Position numbers and translations under genes: made by a program. Of a DNA stretch of 64,000 bases, positions 6,641 through 53,003 are shown piece by piece (the stretch's first letter is position 1; each line of letters starts with the position of its first letter). The notes under the pieces were generated by a model, which was not told where the DNA came from, made no database searches, and saw only the letters and a program-made list of their open reading frames with translations. The DNA comes from Selaginella moellendorffii (taxonomy: Eukaryota > Plantae > Lycopodiophyta), in NCBI RefSeq assembly GCF_000143415.4, contig NW_003314293.1:1198431-1262430 (forward strand), given 5' to 3'.

Positions 6641-6701
6641 TTGGATTCTTTCCCATGGTTCCCATGGCTCTTTTCTTAGCCATTAGTCTTTTGCTGCTAT
6701 C

Positions 6702-23075: not shown

Positions 23076-26000
23076 TCACGCCTCCTCTAATTCAGATTCG
23101 GATTGTTCACCTTGAAATAAAATACATTAGAAACTTAGTAAAGGAATATTAATGAATCTCACCTTGAACCTGGGTTATGAATGCTCTTGCTGCATCTCTT
23201 GCATGGTCTGGCAAGGTGATGGTGGCACTCTGCTTCCACATCCAACCATGCACAACATTATCCACCGATGTGCTCATGCTGGGATCCCTTGGATTCAGCA
23301 CCCATCTCTTTTCTAGGCAATCCTTCGTATATCCGGAACTTGGCTTGAACCACTCCACAGTTACATTGAAGGAGTTAGTTTCCGCGTCCTCCTCTGCATC
23401 AGTGATGCAGCGCCCCACCCATATCATTTGTTTTTTATTATTGGGTCTGACAAGCACGACCATTCCTTTGCAGACCTGTACTGAATTGAATGCTGAATCT
23501 GGCTTCTTGTTCCTCGGCCCACAATAGTGATCCTCAACATTGTTATCTGTCACTGCATTTCCAGAGGACATTGTTCCGCTACTATCTGGTGCTCTGGGTT
23601 CTGGCCAAAAGGACTCTTCCAATTCTTCATATACAACCGGCCCATTTTGGATAGCAGATATAATCTTCTCCCAATATTCGATCAAAGGCTTGCACCTCTG
23701 AAAATAGGATTCTCCACCAAACACCAACCCCCTCTTCCAGAAGGCAATATGCTGTCTAATCCCGGCCACTATACTTTCCTGGTCTTTGAGTCCATCCGGG
23801 TGCATCGGCCGTGGGGAACCCTGAGGAATCATAGGTTCCCTAGTTATGGGATCTCTCTTGAAGAGTTCAATGCCGTCCACTAGCAGCCACACTGTGTCCC
23901 ATTCTCTCATCTTGTACCTCATCACTGGAGCACCGTCACACATGCTGAAATGAAACTGAAGAGGCTTGGAGTGGCCAATCAGCGTTTCGGATCCGTCCCT
24001 GATGTAGCCTCTTACAAACCCCTTAAAGTCTGGAACCTCTGTCAGAAGTGCAGCTTCAACAGTGCCTTTGATGCAATTTTGGAATTCATCGTAGAGTTGT
24101 GGGAGGGTGAGGACATTGGATTGCCGGAGGGACTCTGCCAGGTGACTGAACATGGCATCGACGTCTTCATGAGTGTGCCCAACCATGAGAAAGCCAAGTG
24201 TAACTGTTTCAAATATGCCTTTGGCAACAAGCATCGCCAAGTACGCGAAGACGTACATGTTTTTGTTCTCACTGCCAGCATTGTTTGTTTGGAGCAGAAG
24301 ATGGGGTGGAAGGCCACATCGGCCGCAAGAACTTCCTTGAGATTCTGCTTCGTTTGGATGAGGCTGTGCATTCACCGGGCGACCAGCCTCGTCGGAATGG
24401 CATGAGGCCTCATGTGATAACCCTACAATCTGACGGCCAACATATTCACTGGGATGGCATGGGGCCCCACGCGATACTACAAGCCTTTGCTCCTCCTCCA
24501 GCTGAACCCTGTATGGGGTTCGATCGACAAGGGCCTTATGCAAGGGTTGGCCGTTCAGCTCAGTCTGCGCACTTTGCAGAGACCTTAAGTGTTTTGCTAG
24601 GGACGCAATCATCATGTTTGCACCCCCGCCACCCCATAGAGGTACAAAGAAGTTCCCATAGTTCTGGGCACCATGCCCATGAGCGATTATGCCAAACAGA
24701 GACACAGGCAGCTGCATGGATGAAGAGATTGCCTTGGGGGCAGGATTGAGTCGAGGTAAGCACGTCTTTTTCTGGTCCATTTTGTCGTGGATGATGCAGA
24801 GGTAAGAGTCAGGTCTCTCCATGGAGAGAATCCTGTTATGATAATATGCAGTCCTGCAGCTTCTCTGCTCGATGTTGTGGTCGAGCCGCCTTCTAACCAA
24901 CGTCTCTTGCTCTTGAGCGCTGCAAGAATTCTTCGACAAAGCCATTTTGATAGCAGTGCACTCGTCACACTTTGAAAAGCTGGAGTACTTTCCTATACTC
25001 ACATCCCTGAACCTGTTGCTCCACAATCTACTAAATCTAGATTGGCTCAGCTTCCTGTAGCCATTACTCTGGAGTTCCCGATTCACATCTTCCAATATGG
25101 CCCCCTTGGTATACATGGAAGGGAGAACTCGTTGGGTGTCTCGTGTTCCATCTTCCAAGAGGCGGGTTTTATGTGGTTGCTGCTCGCTACATGTCTCGAC
25201 AAACATCTTGAAGATTGCCTCTCCATATACAACATGACCCCTGGTTTTGTGCGTACCGTCGTTCCCATGGACTGCCTGTTGAACCCTTTGTTCCTCGAAC
25301 TCAGTTTTGATTCTGTAGAATGTGGTTCGAGGGACTCCATAAATGATTCTCCATGCCTTCATGCAGACCAAACCCCTCTGGAAGACCATGCCCCCCACCT
25401 GATGTTCTGAAGCATCAACAGATGACCGTAATGCCTCATACACAAAATTGCGAGCTGCCTTCCAGGACAATGTCTTGTATCTTGCTCTCTCCTCTTCAAT
25501 AGCATCCCAATCAGCATGTTGACAGCACCTCCTCTTGCAACAAGCAACTGTCGAGACCATTCGAACCTCCATCGCCATTTTCTGCCTTTTCAGTTCGTTG
25601 CTCAGATCCCTTTGGCTGTGCTTTAGGAAGGTGTACTTTCTTTTCCCATGAAGAGATGTTCTGTCATCAGTTGTAGTGGTGTTTGATTGTGAATCCTTCA
25701 CATTCTCAAACACTAAGTGCCTCAATTTCCACCGCACAATGCTTCCAATAGTCAGATTGTTTTCTTCTGTGTCAACAACCTCTAAAATCGCAACTCCAAT
25801 ATCATCCCAGCCCAGTTCTTGATTAGCAACCGCATCTCTTGGATCGACAACTGTGGCTAAGCCCTCAGCTACCACCTCCCCCTCGGGGTTGTTTAGAAAC
25901 ACTTTTGCCTGAATCCATGTAGCACGGTTCTTAAGATCCACGGAGGGAACATGCGTCGCACTTGCGCTGTCCCCAACATCTGCTTTCTTCTGAAGATTTT

Positions 26001-26217
26001 TCAAGGCAACAACAACATTTACCCCGACGACCATCTCTCCTCGTTCAATAGCGACCACATTCCCATCGAAGACAGTCTCTACTGATACAGCAGCATTGCC
26101 TTCCCCAAGCCTTTGACAGTGTATAACAAAGTTCCGATCCATAGACACAAATGTCCCTTTTGCAACTCTCTTCCCACCATTCAAAATGTAAACCTTTTCC
26201 CCAACCCTGAAGGCCAT
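23076..26217 (-). CDS. Sola-like DDD transposase with N-terminal tandem TNP1-like domains (copy 1, second catalytic Asp changed to Asn)
   Basis: 1022-aa ORF with CCKRRC, CMKAWRIIYG, FSKCDEC, IHDKMDQ, LQTNNAGSENKN, FLMVGHTHEDVDAMFS. A probable GT-AG intron at 23111-23162 gives C-terminus GEQSESELEEA* ending at 23076. A splice acceptor lies directly before the ATG. Confidence 0.85.
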
Positions 26218-28452
26218 TCTGAAAGTGCAGAAAAGAAGTTAAGACCATACAAAAAATGATTGGAGAATGGCCTAAATCATAACATACCAAACAACCTCAA
26301 TAGCATGAGGCCACATGCCATTATTCAAACATGCTATTGACACCCACGTGAAATTTCGCATTCACAAAATTGGTATAAGGCCTCATGCCATCTTGATAAA
26401 CACACAGCTACAGGCAGGTAAAGAAACTATTGGCAATATGCTAGTGATGAACTTGCAAGCCCCAAGATGGCATGAAGTGGTACTGTAGCGCAGCTCGCAC
26501 CACCGCAACTACTCGTAGCGCCGCTCGCACAAACTGCCACTCGCATAAACTGCCGCTCGCAATGGCGCTCGCAATGCCGCAACCGCTCGTAGACGCATAA
26601 ACCACAGCTCACAACGCCGCTTACACAAGCAGCGCTCACTGTGCTCAGCGGAACCAAGAACATGGCACACAAAAATGATAGACCTAGGAATGAGTTCGAG
26701 AATTCAAAAATAACACACGCTTGAACGTCACATCAAATCCTCTGACAAACCAAATCTTATGATTCCTCTGACAAATTTCAAACTGAGTAGCTTCTAGACT
26801 TTGCTGTCGGAGGTTGAACTTTGTCACATCATGTCCTTGCCTCGATCCAGCTGTGCCATGTCAGTGATTCGAACTTTGCCATGCCATGTCAGCAATCCGC
26901 GCCAAGATTATTCGCCGTGTAAAGGAATAATTGTGCTGTGTGTGTACGTCCATTTATGGCAATATAAGGCCACACGCCATTCAAAGAATAATGCTAGTCG
27001 AGCATTTTTTAGTGCATTTTTGGGTTCAAAATTGCATGAGCCCACACGGTATAAAGTTTACCTGTACCAAAAATAGAAACAGCTTTATTTACTTGGGAAT
27101 TTAAGTGGTTGAGGCATTTTTAAACTTACAAACACATGCCCTACTTACATTCCTTTGGTTGCTTAAAATTCAAAAATATTATAAACCTTTCTTTTTGCAT
27201 TTTCAATGTTTTCAATTAAGGTTTTTGATTTTCGCAGGACCAGCCTAGTAATCTATTTGCATCCCGTCATGTTTATAGCTAGCTTTCATTTGTCCCCTTC
27301 ACTAGCCTGAGATACATCTGCTCGGCATCTGCCTCTTACAGCATTTGCCCAGAAAGGGCATCTTTCTTCACGCAGCATTTGCCACATGTTTAGGGTTTAG
27401 GGTTTAGCAATTCAGTAGCTTGATAAACATGCAAATACAGAACTTGATGCAAAATCCTTTGATATGTCACAATGCCCCTAGGACCATAAACACATTTCAA
27501 TAGAGAGGGTCCTTTCATTTCATAACTCCTTACGTAGATCTTGGTGAAACTAGAGTTAGTGAAGTTGGTTTCTTGTGATCCCGCATCTGATTATGATGTC
27601 CCTTTGCAGTGTCGATGGAAAGGTCAATGCACACCAAACTGTAGAATCTTGGAGCAAAATAACGGTCGGATCTATGGCAAATGCCTTTGAAACATTGTAA
27701 GGCTCGTGTGGTCTCATGTGGTGTCCGATCGAGATGCTTCTTTGCAGAGTCATCAAGAAGGACATCTTTATTTATCTGAACATCTGGCATTTTTGGAAAT
27801 ACAAGATGCTTTGGAATATCCAATCATGCATGGTATAAATATAGCGAGGGTATTAAATGATATCCCAATCATGATCTTTCTTTTGGATTTCGCGTGCATG
27901 TAGTCCGAGGAATGATGACGTTGCGGATTTCTTTTGGATTTCACGTGCATGCATGCGTGCGGCGATCCAGAAATTAATGGTGGCACCCAAGTCCGAGGAA
28001 TGATGACGTGGCGGGATTACCAACCGTCGTGACATTTTGCGCGTGTGAGGTTAGGTTTTGCATCATACTCGCGCTCGCACACTCGTGCTCGCATCGCGCT
28101 CCCACTCGCGATCATGCTCACATTCGCGCTCATCTACCTTCTCTACAGGTTTCTCGTGTACATCGGCATCCACTCGCGCTTGCATCACACTCGCGCTTGC
28201 ATCACGCTCGCGCTCGCATCGCGCTCGTGTGCATCGGCGTCCACTTCAAGACACACCCAGTTTGTAACTTCGCCGCCAACTCCGCCGCCCACTCCGCCAC
28301 CCACACGCAGCCCACTTGGCGTCCCGGGAGATTTCAGCGCCACTCTCCAACTGTAAGTGGCAGAGTAGCCTTGCTGCTACGATCCGCTGCACACAAAGTG
28401 CACATTTGCCAGCGAGTCCGGCTTCGATTGTCACGCCTCCATTCGGCTTCAA
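26218..28452. promoter_or_regulatory. Divergent promoter region between transposase and cargo gene, with telo-box repeats (TTTAGGG at 27389-27407) and CG-rich GCTCGC repeats
   Basis: Head-to-head gene arrangement. TTTAGGG array has one more unit in copy 2 (60626-60653). CG-rich repeats at 26490-26600 and 28065-28240. Confidence 0.5.
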
Positions 28453-31400
28453 ATGGTAAGTCTTTTAATCCAAGTAGAAAATGGCATGAGGCCACATGCC
28501 ATTCAGTAGCAACATTGGCATGCACCGATTGGGCTCTCGAGTGCAGTCCGGTTACAGATGGCGTGTAGCCTCATGCCATCTTAGGATGCAACCTCAAGAC
28601 ATCTGATGCAGTGGTGAATGGCGTGTGGCCTCACGTTATTTCCAGCTGCTAGCTTTTCATCTGTCAGCTCTAATTGTTGTGCATTTCTAAACAGGCGAGG
28701 AATTGCGTTCTTCTTCCAGCCACTGTCAATGTGGATGCAAAGAAGGGGGAGGAGCTCACCAGTTGGACTTTTGGGATGGAAGGCGAGGATCTGAGGCTGT
28801 ACAACACAGATGGTGGGAGAAAAGAATGCATGGGGATCCTCATCCAAGTGACAGACACTCCATGCAGTTCCATGCAAGAATATGGACTGGCTCTTGTCGT
28901 AGAGACAGCGTCCGCCTTCAAGATCCACCTTGCACATCCTAGCGGCTTCCCGGTGGGGGGCAGCGGCTATGAGGAATTCCTAGAGGGAGCTAGGGAGAGG
29001 TTGTCCAGGAGGCCCACAATTTCAAAGACGCTGCGGGTCTATGAAGATCACATGGAATCCACGGACCTCACCTACGGTGATGTTCAAAAACTATATTCCA
29101 ACATTGAGCCGTTGAGAGTGCCTCCAGTTCGCGAAGCGAAGGGGAAGGGGGTCAATCTGGAAACTACCCTGAAGCAGAAAAGGGTGGTCAAGCTCAAGCC
29201 GACGTCCGACTCTTTTGCTCCAAAAAAGAAGCTACTTGGTGATGCCATTGCCTCGGGTTCGAACACTACACCCACCAAAAAGAAGAGCCGCAAAGAGCAG
29301 AAAGAGCAAAAAGAGGCAGCAAAAATCGTTGCAGATAATAGTACTTGTTACTATTCCAACAAAGTATATACAATCAGCATGAGCCGTATCGACATCCAAA
29401 TCAAATACAACCACAGGCTAGTATCGTATGAGTGGGTGGAGAAACTGAAGTAGAAGATGCTGGCAAGTCCAATAACACCCGACATCACAGACGTGATCCC
29501 CTACTACCGAACAATGAAGGGCGACACGAGGTTTCCAGACTTGATCAATAGGAAGGTGTTGGACGATCAGAACATCCGGTTCTATGCCGTCTCCGGGCAG
29601 CATTTTAGCTTGGCGATGCAAGAGATAGTTGTGGATATTATGGTGGGTGAGGAGGTGAAGAAAGTTTTCAAGACAAGAGTTGTCCGCCTGATAAAAGGCA
29701 ACTCGCCCCTCCGATCTATCATATACATTTCCCACGCGCAAAATGTCAAGCAAGAAACGTGCTACAAATCGGGTTTGCACGAGACATTCGCACGAACACG
29801 GAAGCTCTGGGTTCAACTGAAGAAGCCACAAAAACCAGGACAAGGACGTGCACTAACAACTAGCGCCTGGCAGGTAAGCCTCGTTGTATGTGGCATAGCA
29901 TGTGGCCTCATGCCATTTCCATTGCAGGAATTCTCGAGTCTTCTCTCGAAAACACTGGGGGTCAATGATACACTCAGCATCCATAACATTCTACTCACGA
30001 CAAAAGTTGTTTTTGACAAATGGGTAGATGTGCTGAGGAGGTACCATGACGGGGAGTTGCTAAACTCAATGGGTGTGGAGGACGGCCGGAAGCCCAATGA
30101 TTTGAAGCTCAACGCCTTGCGTTTCTCGCGGTCTCTAGACGACGACAACCTTCTGACAGTGGCTAATGCTCTTCTACGTGGTGAGGTAGTCTTCAACAAG
30201 ACCAAAATGACTCCCAGCCATATTGTGACATACGAGGACTTGTGCACAACTCTGAGAGCTCGTGCGCTATTGAAGGATTGGATCTTCGAGCAAGTGGCCG
30301 TGGAGAGGGTGAGCATTGACACCACGCAAGAGATGATGGAAGAGCTAGAGATGTCAAATGAAGACATCGACGAGTACGTGAAGGGGGCCCCCAAGTTCAT
30401 GGATCTGCTGCGGGATGCCACGAAAAGTAAAGCTGAGAAGTTGGATCAGTATCCAAATTTCATTAAGAGGGATGTCGACCGCTGGCTTCAGAAACAGCTC
30501 GACCCCGCAGCAGAGGCCTATCGAGAACGTTACCGGGTATACGTGAATTCGGATGAGGATCAAAGGTGGAGGAGCATCGTTTCCCGCGGAGATGAGCAAG
30601 TCAAGAACATCTTTTGTGTGATGGACTTCACAAACGAGGAGATCACTCATGCAGACGAAGTCAGCTCCATCATTAACTTAATGGTGGGACTTGCGGAGGT
30701 GGAATCTTCAGTCCACTATATGATCTACAACTCCGAATCCTATCACAAGTTCTGGAAGGCCTTGAACGAGGTGAAGGCTCGGTTGAAAGGCAAGGAGATA
30801 TAGGAGATCCATGGGATAATGGCTAAGAAGAAGATACCGACGAATGTCTGCATCTTCACACTCGCCCTTGTTATTTGTCCTACAGCAGAGTGGGACTGGA
30901 GTGACTTCCCAGCTTCGTTCGACAAGGCCGATCGAATTGATCTGAGGGAGGTCAATTTACCCGTGCCTGAGGAACTGAGGAAGGCTATGGAGCTTTCGAA
31001 TCCAGAGAAAGCTCCAGGTGCAGCATGGGAAATGCTCAGCTGGGTCTTCAACGCAATAGCGGGTGGGTCACTTGCTTCCGACTCCAAGGGCAAATGCGTT
31101 GTCGAATACAACTGCGGCGAACTATTCTTTCGAGCCGCACTACTCAAGGGTGTCTCGTGTGTTGCGGTGACAAACTCCATTGAAGAGGTGACTTCAATGG
31201 AGCATATAATTACAGTTGCCAAAGAAAAATAGTATCTTCTCTGCGAACCTGGTGAGTACGCACTTTAAATTTAAATGTTATCTCACAAGCTCTGTATGCA
31301 GAAGCGTGGCCACCCCCAGATGCTGAAACGGCGTTAACAACTACTATTGAAGATACCCATGTTGGGCCGAGCTCACAACCTGCACAAGGTAAGGTCACGT

Positions 31401-34064
31401 GAGGCCTCACGCCATTTTGATTATAGATCGTTGTGAATATTCAGACACGAGGACTGAAAAGCGCACTGGTGGCGCGTCGAAGAAGGACAAACAGACAAGC
31501 ATTAGGAAAAAAGGAGGTACAAATTATATTTGCAATGGCGTGTGGTCTCATGCCATTCCTTGCAGGAGACACTTCTTCAAAGGCAAAACAGGCAAGCACC
31601 AGCCAAGCTTAAACTGACAGTGGTCATAAAAAGCGAAAGCACATTGGACAGTCGTCGGGATCAGAGGCGTTTGATTCGAAAAGGAAGAAGGGCAACGAAA
31701 AGATGATAGGTAATGCCTCGCGATTATGGCGTGTGTGCTCATGCCATTCATTGCAGATCAAGGGCTGAGTGAAAGGAGCCAGTCACCACCTTCTGACTCA
31801 GATTCCTATGGCGGACTCCCCTTCCCCAATCTCAATGGAGAGGTACAATGGATGAGGGATGTTTTTCAAGTCAGGGCCACGTTTTTCTCATCTCGTCGTC
31901 TTCGAAGGGTGCAAGAACGTGCAGAAACCATGTTAAGACAGTCGGGTGAGGATACGGTCCTAGGTCACGCACTAAAACAGGCTATGGATGTCTTGTATTT
32001 TGAGATGGAGACTCAGCCAGATGATTTTCCTAAGATGGTCTTGGAAGAACAAGCCATCCAGCCTGAGCAGCCTATGGAAGAAATGCAGGAGGGGGATGAG
32101 GAGCCAAAGAAAGATAATGAGCAGGAAGAGCAGAAGGACGAAGAGGAGGACAAAGAAGAGGAGGACGAAGAGGACTTGGATGGTCCTCACAATGGTGACG
32201 ATCACAATAACGACGACGACGATGATGACGACGATGGCCAGCCTGAGGTGGCCAAAGAGCAGCAGAGGAAGGTCATACAAGACAAACCATCAGGTAAATA
32301 ATAGTACATCCATTCCTAACCTTTTACCATTTCTAACATTGTCCATATAGGTCACAGAGCAAATGGTAAGTAGAGATTATTCAGTTGAATTAAGATACAA
32401 ACTCTAGCCTTTAGTGTCGAAGAAGGATAGTGCCAAGCAAGGGTTGAAACGTATGTCCAATCCTTCAGAATCAGCAGTGCGCCCAAGTGATATCGGTCCT
32501 AGTTCCTCAATAGCAGTTGATGGTAAATACAGTATAGTCGATTCAATGTGCTAATGAGTTTGTTTTTAGTAGCACGGGAGGATACCATCTCAATCGAAGG
32601 GAGATATTTGGACATGCATATGGATCCGCCAGTGGACTCTACTTGCCTGCAGGAGTCATCAGAGCTGGTGGAGGCTACTATCCATATCAACGCTAAGCAA
32701 GCTGACCACGCTCCACTTGATGCTGCCCATACCACTGAGTCAATCTTGTCCACGTATCCAACTGACGGTGACCAGGCGCCATTGGACCCGCATGAGGCCG
32801 CCCCAGCCGCCGAGCCAGTCGTATCCTCATTTCCAACGAACTCAACGTGTGCCCAATCATCTGACTACGCGCCGTTGGAACCTCCCTACACCGCCCCTGC
32901 TGCCTGTTCGGTCATGTCCACTTTGCCAACGGAGGCACCAGCTGAAATGGTGTGTGATCACACACCATCGGAACCACCCCATGCCACTGTTGAGCCAATT
33001 GTACCAGAGTCTATAGCTGAAATGGCATGTGCCTACACGCCATCGGATGCGATTGACCCCACATTGCAGAGGAGAGTATTTCCGCCCTTCACGTTTCCTC
33101 GACCAAAACCCTCTCAACAACCATCGGGAGCACCATTCGCTAATATTGTAGATGGTAAAATTGACTTGTACCATTTTTTATGCTGACACATTTCATTTCA
33201 GAGTCACGGCGAAGGTACTGTATCGTTTTTGATCTGAACGGTGTCCTTTTCTCCCATGAGCGTGGCTCGTCCTCGAATGTCACTGCACCCTCCAAAGCCT
33301 GCGGTCGCAAGTTGGTCAAACGAGACAAATTCACATTAATCACACGGGAGAAACTGCGGGATCTAATAATGACCATGCGACACTTAAAATAGAGGGCCGG
33401 GTTCAATTTGCAATTGGGAGTTTGGACATCCATGATGCGCCACAATGCATTAACGTTGCTATAGATGATGCACGATCAGACGCGAGTAATATTACCATTT
33501 GACTTTCTCCTAACGCAGGAGGATTGCTTGACTATGGTCCATGTAAGGGGTAGCAAGCCCATCTTCGTCAAGCCAGAGGCTGTAGTGATGAACCGGACTG
33601 CTAGGTCAAGTGAAATCCTCATCATCAATGACTCGCCGATTAAAACTGCATGGAACACGCACACATATGCAGTGCACCCCATCTCTTGCAGTATGGAAAC
33701 TAGGGAGAAGAAACCGTATGTTCTGGGGGACCTTGCAAAACGGCTTGGAGTGATGGTGATAGAAAACCGGCCAGTCCAGGAGGTGGCTGCAGAAATCAAC
33801 CAAATGGCAGATGGAACGGTATATCAGAAGCCATTTGATCGGACAGACACCAGTCATCATTTATGGCATGTATATTGTCTAGCCAAGCACTATCCGCATC
33901 TCCATAATCTGCTCAACCAGATGGGTTCTTCGACCACTAAACATGAGCGTGGACGTATTAGAGAAGAGATGGCATTACTATTGGGTTTAAATCCTGATAG
34001 TGTGGAGAGTGATGAAATTCCAAGATTATTGTATAGCCGTTGGAGGCAAAAAATAACAGTCTGA
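28453..34064 (+). pseudogene. Multi-exon cargo gene of about 1650 aa: ParB-like / amino-MTase-like / acidic linker / FCP1-NIF HAD phosphatase (copy 1, six nonsense codons)
   Basis: Exons 28695-29873, 29928-31251, 31302-31388, 31427(or 31445)-31516, 31566-31709, 31757-32293, 32351-32365, 32415-32522, 32570-33154, 33202-34064 splice in frame via GT-AG introns. Last exon has FDLNGVL, VWTS, TQEDC, KPIFVK, IINDSPIK (IIDDSPIK in copy 2). The 5' micro-exons (ATG 28453) are less certain. Confidence 0.8.
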
Positions 34065-34210
34065 GATGGCATGTATTTATTTAAAAATGTAACTTATTAT
34101 GGCATGGGGCTCCATGCTATTGTATTAATATTAAAAGACAATTCTTTGAGAGGATTTGCATTATACTAGAAGTGTTACAGCATGTTATTGGAAGTCTACG
34201 AAGTTGTTTT

Positions 34211-34497
34211 ATGCTTTATTTCGTTAAAGTGGAACTTTTCATTATCCCACTTATGGTGTGTGGCCACATGCCATTTTTATAACAACAATAAAAAATTAAA
34301 GTTTTAGCTTTATAATTTATAAATTAAAAACTTTTCATATGATTTTGTGTTATAATATTGTGAAATATAAAAAATAAATTAAAAAACTGATAGAAATATT
34401 AATAAATATTAATTAAGTACTAGGAAATGGCATGTGGACACATGCTAATTAATGTCCCACTTTACTGAATAAGTTCCACTTTAACGAAATAAAGCAT
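34211..34497 (+). mobile_element. 287-bp MITE / non-autonomous relative of the Sola-like element
   Basis: TIR ATGCTTTATTTCGTTAAAGTGGAACTT at both ends; TSD TTTT at 34207-34210 and 34498-34501. Precisely absent from copy 2 (empty site near 53290). Confidence 0.92.
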
Positions 34498-37062
34498 TTT
34501 TATTAATAAGGGGAAAGTAAAGATTGAATGGGGACTTGAGCTCCACCTAGACTCGGAGCAACTGAGCCAATATTAAAAGGATGGAAAGAAATTGGACGAC
34601 GATGACAAGGAGAAGAGAGAGGTGAAGCAGTGGCAGGGGGAGGAGAAGTGATTGAGTAGACATTTCCTTGTTTAAAATAAAATGGCATGTGCCTCAATGC
34701 AGTTGAATTTTGTTATATTTATATACTATATAAAGGTTTGGAAACTTTATTTTACAAGTGGGATAATGACAATTCCCACTTTAACAAAATAGAGCTTATC
34801 ATAGGACCCTCTAAATCCCAAGCCTTGGGTGCAACACTTGCTTCGGGACATCGGGGCGAAACACCATGGCCTAACAGCCCGATATGGGTACCTCTACCCC
34901 CCCACTTCCATCCCAAAGGGAAGGCCCAAGCCCCTAGGAAGGGCAAAGGACCAATGAGCCACAAGGTACTCAAGTGGGGCACCACTTCACATGAGCCGAG
35001 AGCACCGCAGTCAGTTTTCCTTTCGGGAGTGAGAGTTGCTCTTGAGCACTTCCTTGGGTGGCCCCTCCAACACCACTTGAGTCCATGCTCACTCCCACCC
35101 AAGGCCCCTTGGCCCCAGTCTCAATCTCAAGTCAGTTTGGAAGCACCATTGGAGAGTTCCTTCAAGACTGGTTCCTGAACTTCACTATCCCTATTATACT
35201 TTTGGAACCCCCTGCAGCCCCGCCCCCTTGGGAGATGCACACTTTGGGCTTTCACCCCTTGACTTGTATTAGTACTCGGACTCGGTCTCAAACTCGATCT
35301 CGGACTCGATCTCGGACCCGACTTTGGACTCAGTCTCGGACTCAATCTCGGACTCGATCTCAGACCCGACTTCGAACTCGACCTTGGACTTGACCTCGGA
35401 CTCAGTCTCAGACCCGATCTCGGATCTCGGACTCTGTCTTGAACTCGATCTCCGAGTCGGCCTCGGACTCGATCTCAGACTCTATCTCGAAGTCGGTCTC
35501 AGAGTGGGTCTTTGTAAGCCACAAATTTTTCCTTTCCAATTTGCCAGCTTACCTCGTCTATCCGTCCAACACTGCCTTGGCTTTTGCTAAGTTCTCTCGC
35601 CAAGGTTCTCGCCTATGGTACCAGCTCCTACTTGGTTTCAGCTACTCACTGCACGAGCAACGGAGTGTTAGCCATCCTTCCACAGATTCCCAAATCACTC
35701 CCAATCCCCCTCCCCGGGTTAGACTGGACTTAAGGTTCGGCTACACTCCCCACAAGCACAAGCAGCCAAGCACACCAAGCTTCCAGGTTTCTAACATCCC
35801 TTGGTACCACAAGACTTGATCATGGGACCCTCTAAATCCCAAGTCTTGAGTGCAACACTTGCTTCGGGATGCCAGGGCGAAACACCGTGGCCTAGCGGCC
35901 CGGTATGGGTACCTCTCGCCCCCCACTTCCATCCCGAAGGAAGGCCCAAGCCCCTAGGGAGGGCGAGGACCAATGAGCCGCATGGTACTCAAGTGGGGCA
36001 CCACTCCACATGAGCCGGGAGCACCGCAATTGGTTTCCCTTTCGGGAGTTGGAGCTGCTCTTGAGCACTTCCTTGGATGGCCCCTCCGGCACCAACCAAG
36101 TCCATGCTCACTCCCACCCAAGGCCCCTCGGTCCCAGTCCCAACCTCAAGTCAGTTTGGGAGCCCCACTGGAGAGTCCCTTCTAAACTGGTTCCTGGACC
36201 TCACTATCCCTACTATACTTTTGGAACCCCCTGCAGCCCCCCCCCCCTGGGGGACGCACGCTTTGGGCTTTCACCCCTTGACCCGTATTAGTATTTGGAC
36301 TTAGTCTCTGGCTCGATCTCGGACCCGATTTCGGATCCGACTTTGGATTCGGGTTCGGACTCGATTTTGGACTCGATCTCGGACCCGATCTCGGACCTGA
36401 CCTCGGACTCGACCTCGGACTCGGTCTCGGACCCGATTTCGGATCTCGGACTCCGTCTTGAACTCGGTCTCGAACTCGGACTCGAACTCGGTCCCCGAGT
36501 CGGTCTTGGACTCGATTCCGGACTCTATCTCGAACTCGGTCCTAGAGTCGGTCTTGGACTCGATCTTCGACTTGGTCCCATCCGATGAACTCTTTGTCAT
36601 TTTGGTCGTGCTTTCGGGGTTCTTTTAGCCTACGACACCTCGGCGAGTTGGTTCCTTACAACACCACCACCCATAGAAGAAGTTCGATGCCCACATTGAA
36701 CGTCTTGTTTTATCCTACGACTTGTTGACCATGTCTCCGGGGGCATCCCCCCACTTAGCGGTGTGCCTAAGTTAGCCTCCCCGGCCAAGAGCCCATGACA
36801 ACGGAATATAGGTGTCCCTATACTCCTCACCTCACCACGCCCTAGTATAGGGTCGGGACTTGAACCCAGCCTTGCTTTACTAGGGGGTTGGGACTCGAAC
36901 CCAACCTCCGTAGAATACGTCTACGGATTCGACATCCCCGCAGGGAGTCGGGCGTAGCTCCCTACGCCTGGTCGACCTAGCTAACCCATGCTAATTAGCT
37001 TACCTTCGGCGCGCCTTCGGGTCCCAACATATGCCATTGCTCAACTTCTCAAATTGATACTT

Positions 37063-40000
37063 TTAATTGAACTTTGCATAAGTACATAGAGTTCTGCCAT
37101 GCAGAAATTCCTCCACTAGATCTCGCGCGTTCGCTAGGTTCTCCTCCGGTTCCCATGTTGCTTCGCAGTGTGGAAATCCTTTCCACTTCACATGGAACTC
37201 TCTCACCTCGCGTCCTTGTCGCTTGCTCTTGCGCGCATTGAGGATGGCCTCGACTTCGTATTCCTCCTCCCCTTGGATAACCTCAGGTAAAGGTCTTACT
37301 TGGTCCTTGCGAAGCGGATCCTCAAAATACGGCTTGAGTAAGTTCACGTGGAACACGGGATGCATCTTCCCCATCTCTCGAGGAAGTCGGAGACGGTAAG
37401 CCACTTTACCAATTCGAGCCTCAATCTCGTAAGGCCCCGCGAACCTGCTTAAGGAACTCAAGATCAATTCATTTACAGGAATACATGCATTTTTACCTTT
37501 GGGTCAACTTCCGGCTGATCCCACTTGGTAGCCTGAGGTTCTTGGTGTTCAGCCACACCTTCTCCCCAGCTTGGAATTCCACATCCCGACGCTTTTGGTT
37601 CGCGTACTTAGTTTGCCTTTGTTGAGCCCGTTCCAAGGAATCCCTCACTAGATTCCAAATGTTAAGTCTTTTCGCCGTGAATGCCTCCACTGCGGGTAAC
37701 TCTCCATGATACTCGGCCACGCCGAGTTCCACAAGACCTTCAATAGCTCGCCCATTGATGACTTCCCATGGACTCACCCCGATGCTCGAATGTGGTGAGT
37801 TGTTATAACACATTTCCGCAAGTCCCAAATGACTTACCCAGTCGGTCTGGTCTCCCGAGACATAGCATCGCAAATAATCCTCCAGCTGCCTATTCACCCT
37901 TTCCGTTTATCCGTCTGTCAAGAAGTGTTAATGCCATCAATCTTGACTCCATACCCATTACCTGTCTGTGGGTGATAGGCCGTGCTGAATTTCAGCTTGG
38001 TGCGATACTGTTCTAGGAGTGTCCTCCAGAACCTACTGGTGAAGATCTTATCTCGATCTGAGATAATCTCTTCCGGCCTTCCCCGCACTCGAACCACTTG
38101 TTCGAAGAACAGCTTCGCCACACCTTCCGCATCCACATCCGTTGTGGTGGGTATGAAATGTGCCATCTTTGAAAATCGGTCCACCACCACGAATATCGCA
38201 TCGAACCCCTCGCTTGGGGGTAGTCCCGTGATGAAGTCCATCGTGAGACATTTCCACGGACGATCTGGAATGGGGATGCTTTGCAACAAACCCCCACTAG
38301 CCTTCGTCACGGCTTTGACCTGCTGACATGTTGGACATGTCTTTACATAGTCTTGGACGTCCTTAGCCATATCTAGCCAGTGATACTTCCTTTTGAGTAA
38401 ACCCATCGTCTTGGGCACTCCGCCGTGTCCCGCGAGAGGTCCGTCATGACACTCTTCCAAGGCTACCTTCCTTAGTTCCCCTTCTGGAACATACACCCTT
38501 GTTTGCTTGTAATATATGAGTCCGTTGCGTTCCGCATAGCCCGTTTTCTCTTCCGTTGGCAGCTCACCTCTCTGGTGAGCTTCCCGCGCCTCCAGATTCC
38601 TCAGCAACACTTCTTGTGCTAGACCATCACTCTCGTATGCGGTCCGCACATCGTCCCAAAAGGTTGCTGTCGCGCTAGATATCGCCAACTTCAAGCTCGC
38701 TTTTCGACTTAGCGCATCTGCCACGATGTTGCTCTTCCCAGGCTTGTACAGGATCTCACAATCAAACTCGGCCAAAGCATTGGCCCACCGACCTTGTTTT
38801 CCCCTTAGGTCGGGCTGTGACAAGAAGTGTTTCGTTGCCACATTGTCTGTGTAAACCTTGAAGTGTCTCCCAAGGTAGTGTCGCCACTCCTTGAGCGCCT
38901 TGACCACCGCAAACAATTCCTTCTCGTGGGCAGGCCACTTCCGTTGAGCCTTGTCCAGCTTCTTCGAGAAGAACGCTACTGGATGGTTGTCTTGCTTCAA
39001 AACTGCGCCCAACGCAAAGTCCGAAGCATCGGTGTCTACCTCAAAGTCCTTACCAAAGTCTGGTAATGCCAACACCGGAGCCTTCCTCAACTTCCCTTTG
39101 AGGTGGACGAATGCCGCCTCGCATTCCGCTGTCCATACCATCTTCCCTTTTTCTGTTTGATCCGTTAAGAGGGCTACTCTCGAATAGTGTCTAATAAACT
39201 TTCGATAGTAGTTGCATAGCCCCAGGAACGCCCTCAACTCATGTACATTCGATGGTCGCTCCCATTCCTGGATCGCTTGGACCTTCTCCGGGTCCACTTT
39301 GAGCCCGTCCTGGCCCACCACATGCCCGAGAAACTTTACCTCTTGTTGAGCAAAGTCACATTTGCTCTCTTTAGCATACAGTTTGTGTTCCCTTAGTTTC
39401 TCAAACACCTTCGCCAAGTGTTCGGCATGCTCCTCTAGCGTCTCGCTATAGATCAGGATGTCGTCAATATAGACGACCACGAAGCGATCCAGATAGGGTA
39501 CAAAGATGTGGTTCATCAATGCCGAAAACGTTGCCGGCGCATTGCACAGCCCAAAGGGCATCACCAGAAACTCAAAGCTCCCATACCTCGTTCGACAGGT
39601 TGTCTTCTCGACATCTTCCTCAGCTACCCTGATCTGGTAGTATCCTGACCTTAGGTCAATCCTCGAGAAGTATTTTGCCTTTCCCAACCTATCGAACAGG
39701 TCCTCGATCCTTGGCAAAGGGTACTTGTTCTTCTTGGTATACTTGTTGAGCAACCGGTAGTCTATGCACATGCGCATAGATCCATCTTTCTTTTTCACAA
39801 ATAGCACCGGCACCCCATACGGCGACTTGCTCAACCTAACATACCCTTTGTCCACCAACTCCTCTAGTTGGCACTTGAGCTCCTTGAGTTCTTTTTCGTT
39901 CAATCGATAGGGTGGACGAACCACCGCCTCAGCACCCTCGACCAGCTCAATCTTATGTTCTATCGGTCGTGCGGGGGGCAACCCCACCGGTAGCTCCTCC

Positions 40001-41832
40001 GGCATCGTATCCTGGAATTGGTCCAGCACCTGCTGGATCACTAAAGGTACTTCTTCCGTTCTTGTCTTTTTGTCACTCTTCACCGAAAGTAAGCACAAAA
40101 AGGCTGCCTTAGTTCCTTTAGTGAGTTGTCCTCTCGTGGACACCAGGTTTAAGCATGACTCTTTGGCCTTGCTTTGCCCTACCTTTAGATCCTGGGCCTC
40201 CACCCTAGATCTTCTTCCTTGGGCATTCGCCAATACCACAAGGTTCCTACCTTGTCCATGCAGGGCTACCACGAACCGATTAAACCAATCCATTCCGAAG
40301 ATCACGTCAAATCCCGCCATGTCCAAGACGGTGAAATCCATGTCCACTTTCCATGTCCCCACTTCGACTCTCGCTTGTCGAAGTACCTCATCGGTGCTTT
40401 GGCTACCTTGAACAAACTCTATAGTCCTTGGTTCGCCTAGCCGCTGCACCGTTAGTCCGGCTTGCCGGACTATGTCTGCAGCCACAAAATTATCCGAAGC
40501 ACCCGTGTCAATAAGGATCTTAACAAAGCTACCTCCGAGCTTCCCTCGGAGGGCTAGTAGATGTCGCGAACGACTCTCTACCAAAGTTGCTCGTGTAATG
40601 AGTAACTTCGAGTTAGGGACTGGATCACATACCTCAGTTTGGACTTCACCCGACTTGATGGCCATATTGGCTCTGGCCTTCTTCGGGTAGGGACATTCCC
40701 TCGAGAAGTGTCCCGCTTCGCCGCAGTTGTAGCATACGTTGTTTCCCACGCTGCTATACAACTTGACCTTCTTATCCGTGGGTTTGTCTTTTTTCGCTTG
40801 ACTCCCCCACGTACTCGCTCGCTGACCACCGGATTTGCCTTTCCGGAACCCCAAGGACTCATTCTTAGAGAAACTCTTTTTGAATTTCCCCTTGCTATAC
40901 GTTCCCCTTGGTTTGGCCCCTTTGCTAAATGTGGATCCCAACCCCGTCGTGTTCCCCTTTCGCAGGTTATCGTTGAAATGCACCTTGATGGCCGCATCCA
41001 ACGCTTCCTTGTAGTTGGTCGGGTTCCACCGCATCACCTCACCGCGAGCCCAGGTTTGCAAACCTGCTATGAAGGCGTGGAACGCATCCATATCCCCCAT
41101 GTCCGTGACAAGTATCCTCTTTGCCATGAACCCATTCACATATTCCTGGATGGTTCCAGTCTGCTTCAGCCTACTCAGCTCATCTCTCAGATGTAGAGTG
41201 GCATTCGGAGGAACGTATGTTGCGCGGATCCTCGCCTTCATCATGTCCCAAGTGGCCACAGGTCCTTTGTTGGCCTCCGTCGTTCTCCACCAAGACTTGG
41301 CATTATCTGCCAAGTATGGTTTTGCACATGGGACCTTCTCCGAGCTCGGTAATCGCAACGCTCGGAAGTAGTCCTCCATATCGTAAAACCAATCCTCCAC
41401 CACTTTATAGTCGTTCACTCCCTTGAAGACCGGTGGGGGCTTTGGTTTGTACTTGGGAACCGCCTGAGGGACTGATTCTACTTCGGTCTGTTCGACCTTG
41501 TCTAGTTTTGCCTCAATCCCGGCCGAAAGATCCGCACCTTCTGCGCTGCCAGCATCCGCAGTCTTTTTCTTTTTCTTCCGCCTCTCGTCACGCTTTAGCT
41601 TGCGTACGAGAGTTTCCAGCAGGGCATTGGTCTGTGCTAACTGTCCTTCTAGCACGTCCAATCGAGCCTTGGACGACCGAACCTCGCCACCGGACTCCTG
41701 TTTGGAAGTTTCCTCACTAGAGTCCTCCTCATGCAAGGATTCCTCATCCATAGCCTCTTGTTCGACCGGAGGCTCCAGCTCCGGCGGAGGTTCCGTCTCC
41801 GCCTGGGTTCGCTTACGCCCTGCCCTTGCCAT
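37063..41832 (-). CDS. Gag-Pol polyprotein (gag, CCHC, protease, RT, RNaseH, integrase, chromodomain) with two introns (37915-37961, 37445-37496)
   Basis: [80 protein letters not shown]. One CAA>TAA stop just after intron 1. Confidence 0.92.
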
Positions 41833-41891
41833 CTCCCAGCAATCCGCCTCTATCCTTCGCTAGAACTGAGATAAAGGCTCCGATACCAAAT

Positions 41892-42290
41892 TGTAAGCTC
41901 CTGAGTTTGGACTTCCCGGGAGGTCACCCAGCCCAGTACTATTCAAACCTAAGGACGCTTAACCCCAAATATCCCAAGACCCTTAACCAATTGGAAAAGG
42001 GGGTGCACTCTTATTCATGGGCCCTTTCCCTCTATATTTGAACCCCTATGGATCGTCTCTCGAGTCGTTCCCTTTGGTTGCTTACAATCCACCACACTTC
42101 CCTGCAAGTTCACGCCCTCGTGAACGGAAGCTGAGAGCCGCAGCTCTCCCGAGAGCCTCGCTCTCTTGACACCCTACCCCTCGGGTCGAGCCCAGCGGGA
42201 GCAAACTGGACCAGCCAGATATCAATCAACATGTGGTGCGATTCCCCTAAGCCAACCAACAGAGTCGGACCCAAAACCGCTCCGATACCA
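41892..42290 (-). mobile_element. Cassandra-like TRIM module (PBS, internal region, PPT, LTR 41892-42086 with 5S rRNA-derived core at about 41909-41963)
   Basis: Minus strand GTTAAGCGT..TAGTACTGGGCTGGGTGACCTCCCGGGAAGTCC matches the 5S internal promoter region and lies within a 195-bp TG..CA LTR. Confidence 0.82.
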
Positions 42291-43588
42291 AATGTAAGCC
42301 ACAAATTTTTCCTTTCCAATTTGCCAGCTTACCTCGTCTATCCGTCCAACACTGCCTTGGCTTTTCCTAAGTTCCCTCGCCAAGGTTCTCGCCTATGGTA
42401 CCAGCTCCTACTTGGTTTCAGCTACTCACTGCACGAGCAACGGAGTGTTAGCCATCCTTCCACAGATTCCCAAATCACTCCCAATCCCCCTCCCCGGGTT
42501 AGACTGGACTTAAGGTTCGGCTACACTCCCCACAAGCACAAGCAGCCAAGCACACCAAGCTTCCAGGTTTCTAACATCCCTTGGTACCACAAGACTTGAT
42601 CATGGGACCCTCTAAATCCCAAGTCTTGAGTGCAACACTTGCTTCGGGATGCCGGGGCGAAACACCGTGGCCTAGCGGCCCGGTATGGGTACCTCTCGCC
42701 CCCCACTTCCATCCCGAAGGAAGGCCCAGTCCCAACCTCAAGTCAGTTTGGGAGCCCCACTGGAGAGTCCCTTCTAAACTGGTTCCTGGACCTCACTATC
42801 CCTACTATACTTTTGGAACCCCCTGCAGCCCCCCCCCCCTGGGGGACGCACGCTTTGGGCTTTCACCCCTTGACCCGTATTAGTATTTGGACTTAGTCTC
42901 TGGCTCGATCTCGGACCCGATTTCGGATCCGACTTCGGATTTGGGTTCGGACTCGATTTCGGACTCGATCTCGGACCTGATCTCGGACCCGACCTCAGAC
43001 TCGACCTCGGACTCGGTCTCGGACCCGATTTCGGATCTCGGACTCCGTCTCGAACTCGGTCTCGAACTCGGACTCGAACTCGGTCCCCGAGTCGGTCTTG
43101 GACTCGATTCCGGACTCTATCTCGAACTCGGTCTTGGACTCGATCTTCGACTTGGTCCCATCCGATGAACTCTTTGTCATTTTGGTCGTGCTTTCGGGGT
43201 TCCTTTAGCCTACGACACCTCGGCGAGTTGGTTCCTTACAGTCTTGGACTCGATCTCAAACTCGGTCCCATCCGATGAACTCTTTATCATTTTGGTCATG
43301 CTTTTGGGGATCCTTTAGCCTATGACACCTCGGGGAGTTGGTTCCTTACATGGTATAGGTTGGTTGCAGCGCAATCATGCCAAGAGTGATTTTGAAGCTT
43401 CTTCCTCTTGTCCTATACTTCTTTATATTTAATCCATTCCTTTCACTTCCATACCTTTTTGTCCTTTTACTTTTACTTTTACTTCCATTACTTTTGTCTC
43501 TATATTACTTCCTCTGATGTTTTAGTCTTGTTCCACTCTTCCCTTTTTTGATCCCTCCAATGATCTTTGTGTTGTAGCAGTTGATTGG

Positions 43589-49092: not shown

Positions 49093-52000
49093 TGTTAGGG
49101 TAAGGGACTTAACCTACCCTAGGGCTCACAGTGGAGCGGCGGCACAGTGGAGCTTTTGAGGTAGCTCGGGGGTGGTTGGGTGGTGAGGAACCTCAAGAGG
49201 TGGCATAGCATAGTCTAGGGCGACTAGATCTTTGTCTTTTTGTGCCGGATCATAACATTGGTATCAGAGGAGTTGGTTGTGATGGCCGACCAAGCTGAAC
49301 GCTAGAATCCTAATGTCAATGGTGGTGCCGACGATGGTGCCGACGAAGCTGCGGAGATTTGGACCATTCAAGATGTGGTTCATGAGCTGCGAGCCCTTAA
49401 CCGAAATCAGCAAGAGATGCAAGACGAGATGCATCGCATGATGGATACCATGCGTGGGCGTGTTGAGGCACTCGAGGCTGGACGGGGTAGCGCTCCAAGT
49501 AAGCCTTCTTTGGTAGATCGACTCAAGATTCCAACTTTTTCCGATGATGGTGGTGTGGACGAGTGTCTCACTTGGCTAGCCAATGTGAAGAAGTTCTTGG
49601 CTGCTAGAGGAACTCCCGATGCAGAGGCTTTAGTGGCTATTCCGATGGTTTTGCGTGATGCAGGTCTTCGATGGTGGAATTGGCTTGAGGAGTCCCGTGT
49701 TGCGGATAAGAAACCACCAGTGTCTACCATGGATGAATTTGAGGCTGCTTTCCATTTACATTTTGCCCCTCATTACGATGTGGAGAATGCTCGTACGAAA
49801 CTTCGACATTTCCAGCAAGGGAAAATGACACTCGGGGACTATATTGAGAAGCTTACTCGCTTGATTAGTCGTGTTCCAATGAAGGATCCAGATCAGAACA
49901 AGTCCTACTTCATTGATGGCCTACATAGTGAGAGCATGCGGCAACACTTGCGTCATTCTCAGCCTACAAAGAGTTTGGAGGAGCTCTTTGATGCAGCTCG
50001 TCGACTTGACAATGATAAGCACAAGTCTCGCAAGCGTTCGCGGAGTCCTTCTGTCGAGAATCGTCGTGATGATCGCCGTGGACACAAGGATGGGAACAAG
50101 CATCACAAGTTGAAGTCGATGGTGACTACTTCAAATGCAAAGGGAAGAAGCAGAAGTTCTTTGTGAAGAATTATCGATAGGGTTGTCATAATTGCGGCGA
50201 ACTTGGACACTACAAGGCTGATTGTCCGTAGTTGAAGAACAAGCAGTAGGACAAGAAGAATGGCCAATCTTCTTCTCACGGTAAGTCAGATACTAAAAAG
50301 TTGCAAGCTTTGCAGTGTGAGGATGAGGAGAACGACCATTCTGATTGGAGGAAGCGACTTTCGATCGTTGCTCGTCAACTCAACTGTGTGTGGAACAAGA
50401 TGGAGCTCGAGGATACGCGTGAATCAGCTTTAATGCTGGAGGGCGTGTTCCGTGGCGATCCAGTGCGGATTTTACTGGATAGTGGGAGCAATGACAACTT
50501 TGTTTCGGCAAAGTTTGTTGCGGAGCATAGCCTGGTCACACGCAGCGTTCTTCCATACACAGTGGAAGGTGCAGCTACCTCTACTCAACATTTCGATGCT
50601 TGTGTCGAGGGGCTGGAAGTGTTGGTTGGCAAAACCACACTTGTAGAGACTTTTTATCTCGTGGATATCCATTATGTGGATCTTATTCTCGGGATGCCAT
50701 GGTTGGTGAAGGTGGATCCAGAGATAAAGTGGAGTATTAAGCATATCTCGCTAGAGTATGGTGGCGTTAAAGATGTGTGGTTTAGCGAGGGCGTTCAACC
50801 ACCAATTGTTATGCTCTCTGCTACATCTTTGAAGCAGGCTTGTCGTAATGGAAAAGCACTTTCGAGTTACTTGCTGTTTGTTTGTGACTTGGGGGACCAA
50901 GGCACGTGTGGGGGAGAAGCAGCAGTACGGGATGTACTGGACGAGTTTTCTGATGTTTTTCCATCTGAACTTCCTCATGGATTGCCTCCGTTACGAGGTG
51001 TGGAGCATGGGATTACATTGGAGCCGGGGACGCGACCAATTTACCGGCGTCCATTTTGGTTAAGTTATGCGGAGGAGCAAGAAGTTCAACGACAAGTCAA
51101 GGAGTTACTTGAGTTTGGATTCATTCAGCCAAGTAAGTCTCCATTTGGTGCTCCGGTCTTGCTTGTGAAGAAGAAGGATGGTTCAATGCGGATGTGTATT
51201 GACTACCGCGCTTTGAACAAGAAGACAGTAAAGGATAAGATGCCGATGCCACGTGTGGATGATATCTTGGACAAGCTTGGTGAAGCACAAGTGTTTACCA
51301 AGATTCGGACATTTTGAGTTTATAGTTATGCCGTTTGGTTTGACGAATGCACCGGCCACATTTATTCGGTTGATGACGGAGGTATTTGGGAGTTATCTTC
51401 ACGAGTTTGTGGAGATTTTCTTGGACGATATTCTTGTTTTTAGCAAGAATATGGAGGAGCATAGGGTGCATTTGCGCAAAGTTCTTTTGTTACTCCGAGA
51501 CAGCAAACTTTATGCGAAGAAGAGCAAATGTGAATTTGCAAAGTCGGAGGTGGAATATCTAGGCCATATTGTGACATCTAAGGGTGTCAAGACAGATCCA
51601 AGGAAGGTGGCTATGGTGGAAAACTGGCCTACACCGACTACGGTGGCCGAGTTGCGTAGTTTTCTTGGTATGGCTAGTTACTACCGACGTTTCCAGCATA
51701 AGTTTGCAGAGGTGGCTATTCTTTTGACGCAATTGTTACGCAAGAATGTGCCATTCGAGTGGAAGAAGCCACAAGAGGAGAGTTTTGTGGCCCTGAAGCG
51801 ATTGTTGAGTGAGACTCTAGTGCTTCACATTGCTGATCCATCAAAACCTTACGAGGTGACATGCGATGCAAGTGGTTATGCACTGGGAGGAGTTCTCATG
51901 CAAGAGGGACAACCTATTGCATATGAGAGTCGAATTTTGAATTCTGCGGAGCAACGCTATTCCACATATGAGCAAGAGTTACTCTCTATTGTTCATGCTT

Positions 52001-53003
52001 TGCGGACATGGCGGCACTATCTTTATGGTGCAGTGTTCGTGGTATTGACAGATCACAAACCACTTGTGTATCTTTTCACATAGAAGGAGTTGAACACTAG
52101 GCAAGCTCGTTGGATGGTCAAACTCATGGAGTTTGGGGAGTTTCCTATTGAGCATTGTCCGGGAAAATCAAATATGGTGGCAGATGCGTTATCTCGTGTT
52201 CGTCATGTGACGACGTTACAAACACGATTTTGTCATCATTTGAGTAAGGTGGTCAGCGAGTTTGGGCAGTTGGTTGAGCATGCTCAGGCTCAGGATGCTG
52301 AGGTGGCCTCTTTGCGAGACCAAATGGAAGCTCCTTTCTCATTGGTGGATGGGATTCTCTACTACAATGGCCGTGTATATTTGCCACGGGTGGATGCATT
52401 AATTACTCAAGTTTTATTCCACTATCATGATCGTCCAGAGGCCGGTCATTTTGGGGGGAAGAAGACGTATGAGTTGATTAAGCGCAACTTTTATTGGAGG
52501 AATATGAAGGCTGATATCCTCAAGTATTGTAAATCATGTGAGCTTTGTCAGCGGGTTAAGGTGCCACGGGAGAAGCTGGGGGGACTTTTGCAACCTTTAC
52601 CTATTCCTCAAAGCCGTTGGTGTAGTATCTCTATGGACTTCATCACTTGTTTGCCACGAACACAGAGGCAAAAGGAGCAAGTATGGGTCATAGTGGATTG
52701 GTTGACGAAGTATGTATGGTTGTTGGCTCTTCGGAAGACTGTCATTGCCTCAGACTTGGCTGCGGTTTACTTGGAGAAGGTTTTTCCTGATTTTGGTTTG
52801 CCGGAGGATATCATTAGTGATCGAGATTCAAAGTTCACTAATGGATTTTGGAAAAGCTTTGCAAAGGCTATGCAAGTGACTTTGAAACTCTCGAGTGGAG
52901 ATCATCCTCAGATGGATGGGCAAACCAAGCGTGTGAATCAGGTGGTGGAGGATATGCTACGTTGTAGCATTGGTCAAAGGCAAGGACAATGGGATCTATA
53001 TCT
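49093..53003 (+). mobile_element. Ty3/gypsy family B, 5' part (LTR 49093-49257, PBS 49259-49269), interrupted by DNA transposon copy 2
   Basis: TGTTAGG..CATAACA followed by TGGTATCAGAG, then gag, protease, RT, RH and INT. Confidence 0.88.
49282..53003 (+). pseudogene. gag-pol pseudogene of family B
   Basis: gag 49282-50230 with CHNCGELGHYKADC; ILLDSGS; [11 protein letters not shown]; FLDDIL; integrase core. Has stops, frameshifts and a deletion in RT near 51303. Confidence 0.9.

Follow-up and report, generated by a model that had tools for sequence, protein, structure and literature searches.

The window analysed here, a 64,000-nt stretch of the Selaginella moellendorffii genome (contig NW_003314293.1), carries on its minus strand an LTR retrotransposon in which TG..CA LTRs, a primer-binding site (PBS), a target-site duplication (TSD) and the gag-PR-RT-RH-IN domain order of the Ty3/gypsy chromoviruses are all present (Table 1), together with a chromodomain at the integrase's C-terminus (PF00385, E = 2.7e-16 in the last exon). 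Gag-Pol is laid out in three frames, the first of which runs from gag (CCHC) through PR, RT and RH into the front of the integrase, whilst the second holds the rest of the integrase core and the third the end of the SH3/GPY-F module and the chromodomain. Aligned over 948 columns, the two LTRs show 11 differences (98.8 % identity, K2P distance 0.012), which places the age of this copy at roughly half a million years; the rate used, 1.3e-8 per site per year, is borrowed and may not be the host's. From the TSD and the LTR identity it follows that the copy integrated with its introns already in place; it is a recent integration carrying all four of the introns described below, and is now integrase-dead. 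An in-frame TAA at 37909–37907 leaves no stop-free Gag-Pol even after splicing, and therefore no whole integrase can be obtained from the window copy. An earlier note, made from the sequence alone, had the motif G(Q)TER restored across the first integrase junction and described the element as young and mobile; the codon concerned is this TAA, leaving no Q in the window copy, and whilst the near-identical LTRs and intact TSD agree with youth, the copy itself is not mobile. At position 39169, contigs from three sequencing runs (X1, X3 and X10, see below) hold 3 extra nt, i.e. compared with the family, the window copy is one codon short in the RT-RH linker region. The element is itself inserted into an older LTR of the same family (34798–35512 and 43241–43350, minus strand, ∼84–90 % identical), which it splits, and its TSD falls within that older LTR.

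Table 1. Features of the intron-bearing retrotransposon and of its older relative in the window
Feature	Positions	Strand	Evidence and remarks
TSD AAGAC, 3′ side	35508–35512	-	Identical 5 nt at 43241–43245
3′ LTR, 1148 nt, TG..CA, with poly-G tract	35513–36660	-	
Last coding exon: second part of SH3/GPY-F module and chromodomain, up to stop codon	37063–37444	-	Pfam PF24626, PF00385
Integrase intron 2, 52 nt, GTAAAA..AAGCAG, phase 2	37445–37496	-	Skipped in X1, X4; present in X9, X10 contigs
Middle integrase exon, catalytic Glu of D-35-E; in-frame TAA at 37909–37907 in window copy	37497–37914	-	
Integrase intron 1, 47 nt, GTAATG..TGACAG, phase 1; in-frame stop if retained	37915–37961	-	Skipped in X1, X4 and one X15 read; retained in X3, X9
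gag-PR-RT-RH-IN exon (N-terminal part of IN, two catalytic Asp), ATG at 41832, 1290 codons	37962–41832	-	
Alternative protease intron, 157 nt, GT..AG, coding if retained (DTG active site)	40476–40632	-	Skipped in X1, X3; X10 contig 40405–40674 keeps it, depth 75
Leader intron: U5 donor in 5′ LTR, spans LTR end and PBS	41866–42332	-	Skipped in X1; retained in X3, X10
PBS TGGTATCGGAGC, tRNA-Met type	41877–41888	-	Type as in PMC3350952
Cassandra-like unit of 401 nt, specific to window copy: PBS, short internal part, LTR containing a 5S-like stretch (41895–41982)	41892–42292	-	
5′ LTR, 948 nt (12- and 188-nt deletions), TG..CA	42293–43240	-	
TSD AAGAC, 5′ side	43241–43245	-	
Older, internally deleted copy, ∼90 % identical; keeps intron 1, intron-2 donor and 66-nt leader intron	19576–21512	-	

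The integrase is interrupted by two minus-strand inserts with GT..AG ends in the sense orientation. When both are removed, with an X placed at each junction, the read-through is 1556 aa long and its integrase is colinear with that of relatives. Junction 1 is spanned by 108 of 124 relative proteins (106 of the 108 without a gap within 8 residues) and junction 2 by 89 of the 124, 62 of them without a gap. The first junction (residue 1291) has catalytic Asp 1259 on one side and Glu 1295 on the other, with intron 1 located 4 residues ahead of the Glu, and the unspliced frame stops inside this intron; unspliced RNA therefore encodes an integrase that lacks its catalytic Glu. As the full frame needs both introns removed, the proposal that spliced RNA makes the integrase and chromodomain stands, and the requirement of spliced RNA for the complete protein is supported. 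Short direct repeats, of 5 and 4 nt that fit either side of the joint, flank the integrase introns, the pattern expected had each been inserted at a proto-splice site and a few nucleotides duplicated in the process.

A search for sequencing runs listed 23, with no sequence holder among them recorded as RNA; X1, X3 and X4 are RNA by guess, whilst X9 and X10 are DNA-like, their kind not being recorded. Contigs of four runs (X1, X3, X4 and X10) were compared with the window. On the plus strand, CT..AC joints were found at 37442/37495 and 37914/37962 (each in X1 and X4), at 40475/40633 (X1 and X3) and at 41865/42333 (X1), such that all four introns are skipped exactly in contigs of probable RNA, each with GT..AG ends on the sense strand. 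The two integrase inserts had already been proposed as spliceosomal introns of 47 and 52 nt in the earlier note, and their exact removal in X1 and X4 bears this out. In X10 all four joints have a depth of 0, in a comparison where other joints are listed down to a depth of ∼2, and no joint was seen in X9, although contigs omit rare variants and rare intronless copies could thus go unseen in both runs. One X9 contig (37418–37576) contains intron 2 at a depth of 132 with no difference, and X9 contigs carry variants within intron 1 at a depth of ∼110.

In run X3 both intron 1, within a gap-free piece of 609 nt, and the leader intron are present; X1 is without both, and yet the two runs have common variants that are absent from X10 (e.g. 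at 37532, 37787 and 38224). The presence of one variant set both with and without intron 1 is therefore better explained by one type of transcript being spliced than by an intronless DNA copy. These private variants, shared among RNA-like contigs, may also indicate one expressed locus as their source and not the whole family. It could be argued that the inserts are inactivating indels and that the joined forms were read from genomic DNA of a copy without introns, given that the RNA nature of X1, X3 and X4 is a guess and that duplication or deletion could leave repeats like those at the integrase inserts. Such an origin is hardly credible to us, as it would have to produce four separate skips that are all GT..AG on the sense strand, appear in neither X10 nor X9, include one within a recorded RNA-Seq read (see below) and coexist with a retained form bearing the same variants. 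The conclusion that the four inserts are spliceosomal introns, that spliced forms exist and that the dominant genomic form keeps the introns is supported by these data. The joints come from different molecules: the leader splice was seen in one run of the four (X1, with 66 letters on its short side) and the integrase splices in two, the X1 evidence is spread over three separate contigs, none of which joins leader to integrase splicing, and a Pol isoform with the protease intron kept and the integrase introns removed was not seen on one molecule in the run contigs.

The earlier note had named RNA junction reads as a check, and we examined three raw RNA-Seq runs with the same species label, ∼12 % of each being read. 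Over 36900–38500 these gave 6, 2 and 0 reads (X15, X16 and X17; 8 in total), with no joint at the listing threshold. The bin depths of X15, however, reveal one 150-nt read that skips intron 1 exactly (37811–37914 plus 37962–38007), with its mate at 37552–37701; this is the only placement fitting those depths, assuming a 150-nt read, a single skip and the given mate. X16 contributed 2 partial reads and X17 none, and raw support from recorded RNA is accordingly a single read, for intron 1, among the 8. Within intron 2, at 37472, the X4 contig and, by depth arithmetic, partial reads of X15 and X16 leave the element for sequence absent from the window. Cleavage inside the intron was considered for the reads ending near this position and rejected, as the X4 contig continues there into unrelated sequence; the break is likely another truncated, transcribed copy.

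The remaining two introns lie upstream of the integrase. With the protease intron removed, as in X1 and X3, the frame runs on for one codon beyond the junction and then stops, encoding Gag only (401 aa). The earlier note had set the element apart from copia elements with their gag introns, which holds for the integrase introns, located elsewhere, but not for the element as a whole, since it also has this conventional Gag-making intron. The leader joint connects 42333 in the 5′ LTR with 41865, 33 nt upstream of the gag ATG, and its sites are canonical (GAG/GTAAGC and CTCAG). In the family form this intron is 66 nt long, consisting of the last 40 nt of the LTR, the PBS and a short pyrimidine-rich tract, compared with 467 nt in the window copy because of the 401-nt insert listed in Table 1. 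Under the standard tRNA-primed mechanism, RNA without a PBS cannot start reverse transcription. Leader-spliced RNA, having lost the PBS and the LTR end, can therefore not prime it.

By anatomy, and not by sequence comparison, the element likely belongs to SM1-Galahad, a Galadriel-related chromovirus family of S. moellendorffii (Novikov et al. 2012, PMC3350952). According to its description, the family is 7.5 kb long and numbers hundreds of copies, none of them intact, with 1076/1146-nt LTRs, a PBS for tRNA-Met and poly-G tracts; its 1295-aa ORF lacks the chromodomain, and two short ORFs (316 and 309 nt) lie downstream (PMC3350952). With the insert and the LTR deletions discounted, the window element measures 7527 nt against ∼7.5 kb, its LTR 1148 against 1146 nt, and poly-G tract, tRNA-Met PBS and CCHC Gag are common to both. 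Likewise, its long ORF ends in the integrase core and is followed by two short ORFs, the last of which, with the chromodomain, is 309 nt in both; the differences are an ORF1 of 1304 aa compared with 1295 aa and an ORF2 of 321 nt compared with 316 nt. The main text of PMC3350952, in which the family is read as three ORFs, contains neither 'intron' nor 'splic' (0 occurrences each). The introns explain why SM1-Galahad was published as a family without an intact copy, and ORF-based screens will call such intron-bearing families dead. The sister family SM2-Galahad, with a single 1577-aa ORF (PMC3350952) against the 1556-aa read-through of the window element, offers a reference for dating intron gain.

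Amongst 83 related DNA stretches (78 metagenome loci, three viral-collection loci and two window copies of another gypsy family), 79 pass junction 1 and 68 pass junction 2 without an intron-sized insert, and none of the 83 has one; 1 and 14 stretches, respectively, do not cover the junctions, and 3 and 1 break nearby, by locus end or shifts of 1–2 nt. The integrase introns therefore represent a gain in the lineage of the element. The 81 metagenome and viral loci are 40–53 % identical to the element and none is close; in scans of metagenome and viral contigs no closely related sequence of a different species turned up. When the middle exon was used to look for relatives interrupted at these sites, 17 candidates yielded 4 weak matches (32–53 % identical, ends not inspected). 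Two distant relatives contain inserts between colinear Pol matches at other positions, of ∼195 nt (L051, ∼768–994) and ∼98 nt (L067, ∼4869–5001). In an RT-RH tree of 164 sequences, built without a named Galadriel reference and leaving out matches that were too short, the element groups with 31 relatives (support 0.80, nearest distance 0.74). The other gypsy family of the window is present as two copies (4359–6875, minus strand; 49306–53049, plus strand) that are 96 % identical to each other and ∼40 % identical to the element in Pol, and in its ORF at 4359–5591 the integrase core and SH3 module share one frame. Introns are therefore not universal among the elements of this genome.

The older copy of the element (Table 1) gives a second view of the introns. 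As the earlier note had claimed, it keeps intron 1 and the intron-2 donor, the latter at 19576–19581, where the copy is cut off; intron 1 occupies 19999–20045, one position off the coordinates first given. The leader donor, PBS and leader acceptor are also retained. Where the window copy has its TAA, the older copy carries a sense codon. The interior of intron 1 had been called diverged, which is correct for its 5′ half, where 7 of the 20 positions from 3 to 22 differ compared with 91 of 1055 in exons (binomial P = 0.001), but not for the 3′ 25 nt, which are unchanged (P = 0.10 at the exon rate, alone not significant). A branch-like TTAAC in this unchanged 3′ half is suggestive only. Amongst the exon changes between the two copies, 49 of 91 occur at third codon positions.

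Both copies are broken, the RNA-like contigs of three studies have private variants in common, as from one locus, and the 2012 description includes no intact copy (PMC3350952); the introns might, on these grounds, never have passed through retrotransposition, having spread by DNA duplication or belonging to one tamed, spliced locus in a dead family. The window copy, however, has its own 5-nt TSD and highly similar LTRs with all four introns inside, a 90 %-identical copy carries introns at another site, and the intron-bearing form dominates X9 and X10. Moreover, the changes between copies favour third codon positions, and the three-ORF reading accounts for the lack of any copy that looks intact. 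We therefore regard an origin without retrotransposition as very improbable.

The classic demonstration that an element passes through RNA is the loss of introns. The inference that the template is unspliced RNA, which the earlier note had as the packaged form, follows from intron retention, to which the PBS-removing intron likely adds a mechanism. We consider it reasonably probable that the family keeps its introns because the leader intron, spanning the LTR end and PBS, bars spliced RNA from priming reverse transcription, leaving unspliced RNA as the only form that would be copied. In this scheme unspliced RNA would serve as the genome and would encode the integrase cut 4 residues ahead of its catalytic Glu, RNA minus the protease intron would yield Gag only, and RNA that retains the protease intron but has lost both integrase introns would yield the full Pol with its chromodomain, whilst loss of the PBS from processed RNA would keep the spliced forms from inheritance. 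RNA that kept the PBS but had lost the integrase introns should yield viable intronless copies, and the PBS intron alone is therefore an incomplete explanation; the model needs splicing of the integrase introns to be coupled to that of the leader intron on the same molecule.

Coupling would be unnecessary if the introns were real but the PBS intron incidental, with spliced RNA kept apart in a pool of its own or passed over in packaging (owing to a second start site, to missing R, or to Gag capturing the unspliced form). The precedent is barley BARE1, for which the available part of PMC3735527 reports that only an unspliced, uncapped RNA pool replicates. Separate pools would explain the absence of intronless copies without coupled splicing, and the leader splice was found in one of four runs compared with two for the integrase splices. 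The leader intron nevertheless has canonical sites and persists in the older copy, and what it takes out is precisely the LTR end and PBS; we judge an incidental role for it rather unlikely, though a serious alternative. Retaining the integrase introns could also be a regulated means of switching integration on or off, possibly by making catalytically dead integrase. Retained intron 1 does stop the frame ahead of the catalytic Glu, and probable-RNA runs contain the spliced form (X1, X4) as well as the retained one (X3), but the retained X3 form may be pre-mRNA, genomic RNA or DNA, and nothing in the data speaks for regulation over constitutive splicing of the mRNA pool, making such a switch improbable in our estimation. 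Returning to the exclusion of spliced RNA through its lost PBS, we are evenly divided on a wider formulation, namely that this is a fully splice-programmed LTR retrotransposon in which a PBS-destroying intron on every processed transcript would render spliced RNA non-heritable, leaving gene-like introns free to enter an enzyme domain, and in which genome, Gag and complete integrase would be made from three splice states.

Several known systems resemble parts of this arrangement, and are compared here on the available portions of the sources. Plant LTR elements are stated in a 2025 review to be generally without introns apart from Ogre and EVD (PMC12786077), and no conserved splicing is reported for Arabidopsis Ty3/gypsy elements in PMC5580714. 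Gag-only splicing is known from EVD/Evade, Drosophila copia and BARE1, all Ty1/copia elements (PMC5580714, PMC12786077, PMC3735527). As in the window element, an alternative intron at their gag/protease boundary leads to a stop right past the junction and thus to Gag only. Their spliced RNA is not replicated, as is likely for the window element too; in contrast, their unspliced RNA encodes the full Pol, whereas that of the Ty3/gypsy element described here encodes an incomplete integrase, and the PBS-removing intron is a feature of the window element. Ogre, which splices between ORFs (PMC6317226), is likewise a Ty3/gypsy element that needs splicing for its full polyprotein and keeps its intron in genomic copies. 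It is, however, a non-chromovirus with one inter-ORF intron, unlike the two tiny introns within the integrase domain and two elsewhere of the window element.

In foamy viruses a major splice donor lies upstream of the PBS. These viruses make Pol from spliced mRNA (PMC7828637) and so share with our scheme enzymes derived from spliced RNA and a genome of unspliced RNA, but one large intron removes gag and there are no introns within the integrase. Penelope-like elements retain introns for a cause stated as unknown (PMC8557442); they too are retroelements with spliceosomal introns, one of which extends across the boundary of repeat and body, but they have no LTR, tRNA priming or DDE integrase. 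Within the literature covered, with Repbase, most subscription journals and supplements outside its scope, no report was found of a Ty3/gypsy element with introns in its integrase or spanning the PBS, and the available portions of PMC2864245, PMC12130899, PMC12477816, PMC6875170 and PMC7730604 describe no integrase introns in LTR elements. A four-intron expression scheme in a known family is thus apparently undescribed before. With a high-copy family that has introns in the integrase catalytic core and a candidate built-in reason for keeping them, the separation of genome RNA from mRNA becomes testable.

The 401-nt unit of the window copy sits exactly between the 5′ LTR and the PBS, with the PBS and the LTR end GCTTACA common to the unit and the chromovirus. 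It comprises one PBS-internal-LTR unit only; neither the older copy nor the main form in X10 and X3 contains it, whilst tandem joins of the unit occur in these two runs, with very high depth in X3. Its match to 5S rRNA in Rfam (E = 1.9e-4) scores 35.7 bits, below the gathering score of 38. Cassandra TRIMs are defined by a 5S rRNA-derived stretch in a short LTR, a PBS and no coding capacity, and their autonomous partner is stated as unknown, in the available part of PMC10886601; the features of the unit hint at the chromovirus as Cassandra's helper. A CT..AC skip of 80 nt inside the unit (42046–42125) also occurs in X3; three other letters lie between its two sides, and its depth is low compared with that of the unit.

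Further repeats occupy much of the remaining window. Inverted copies of a ∼10-kb repeat, 95–98 % identical, lie at 24171–34798 and 53003–64000 and contain a 1029-aa DUF7869 frame (23149–26238), a 753-aa frame without a Pfam match and a NIF-like phosphatase fragment; this repeat is possibly a large DNA transposon. Finally, nested copies of an element with ∼1.75-kb long terminal repeats, 98 % identical, were found at 6702–14313 and 14314–19575; the terminal repeats consist of 12- and 35-nt tandem units with open frames in all six phases, and there is no long coding frame inside.
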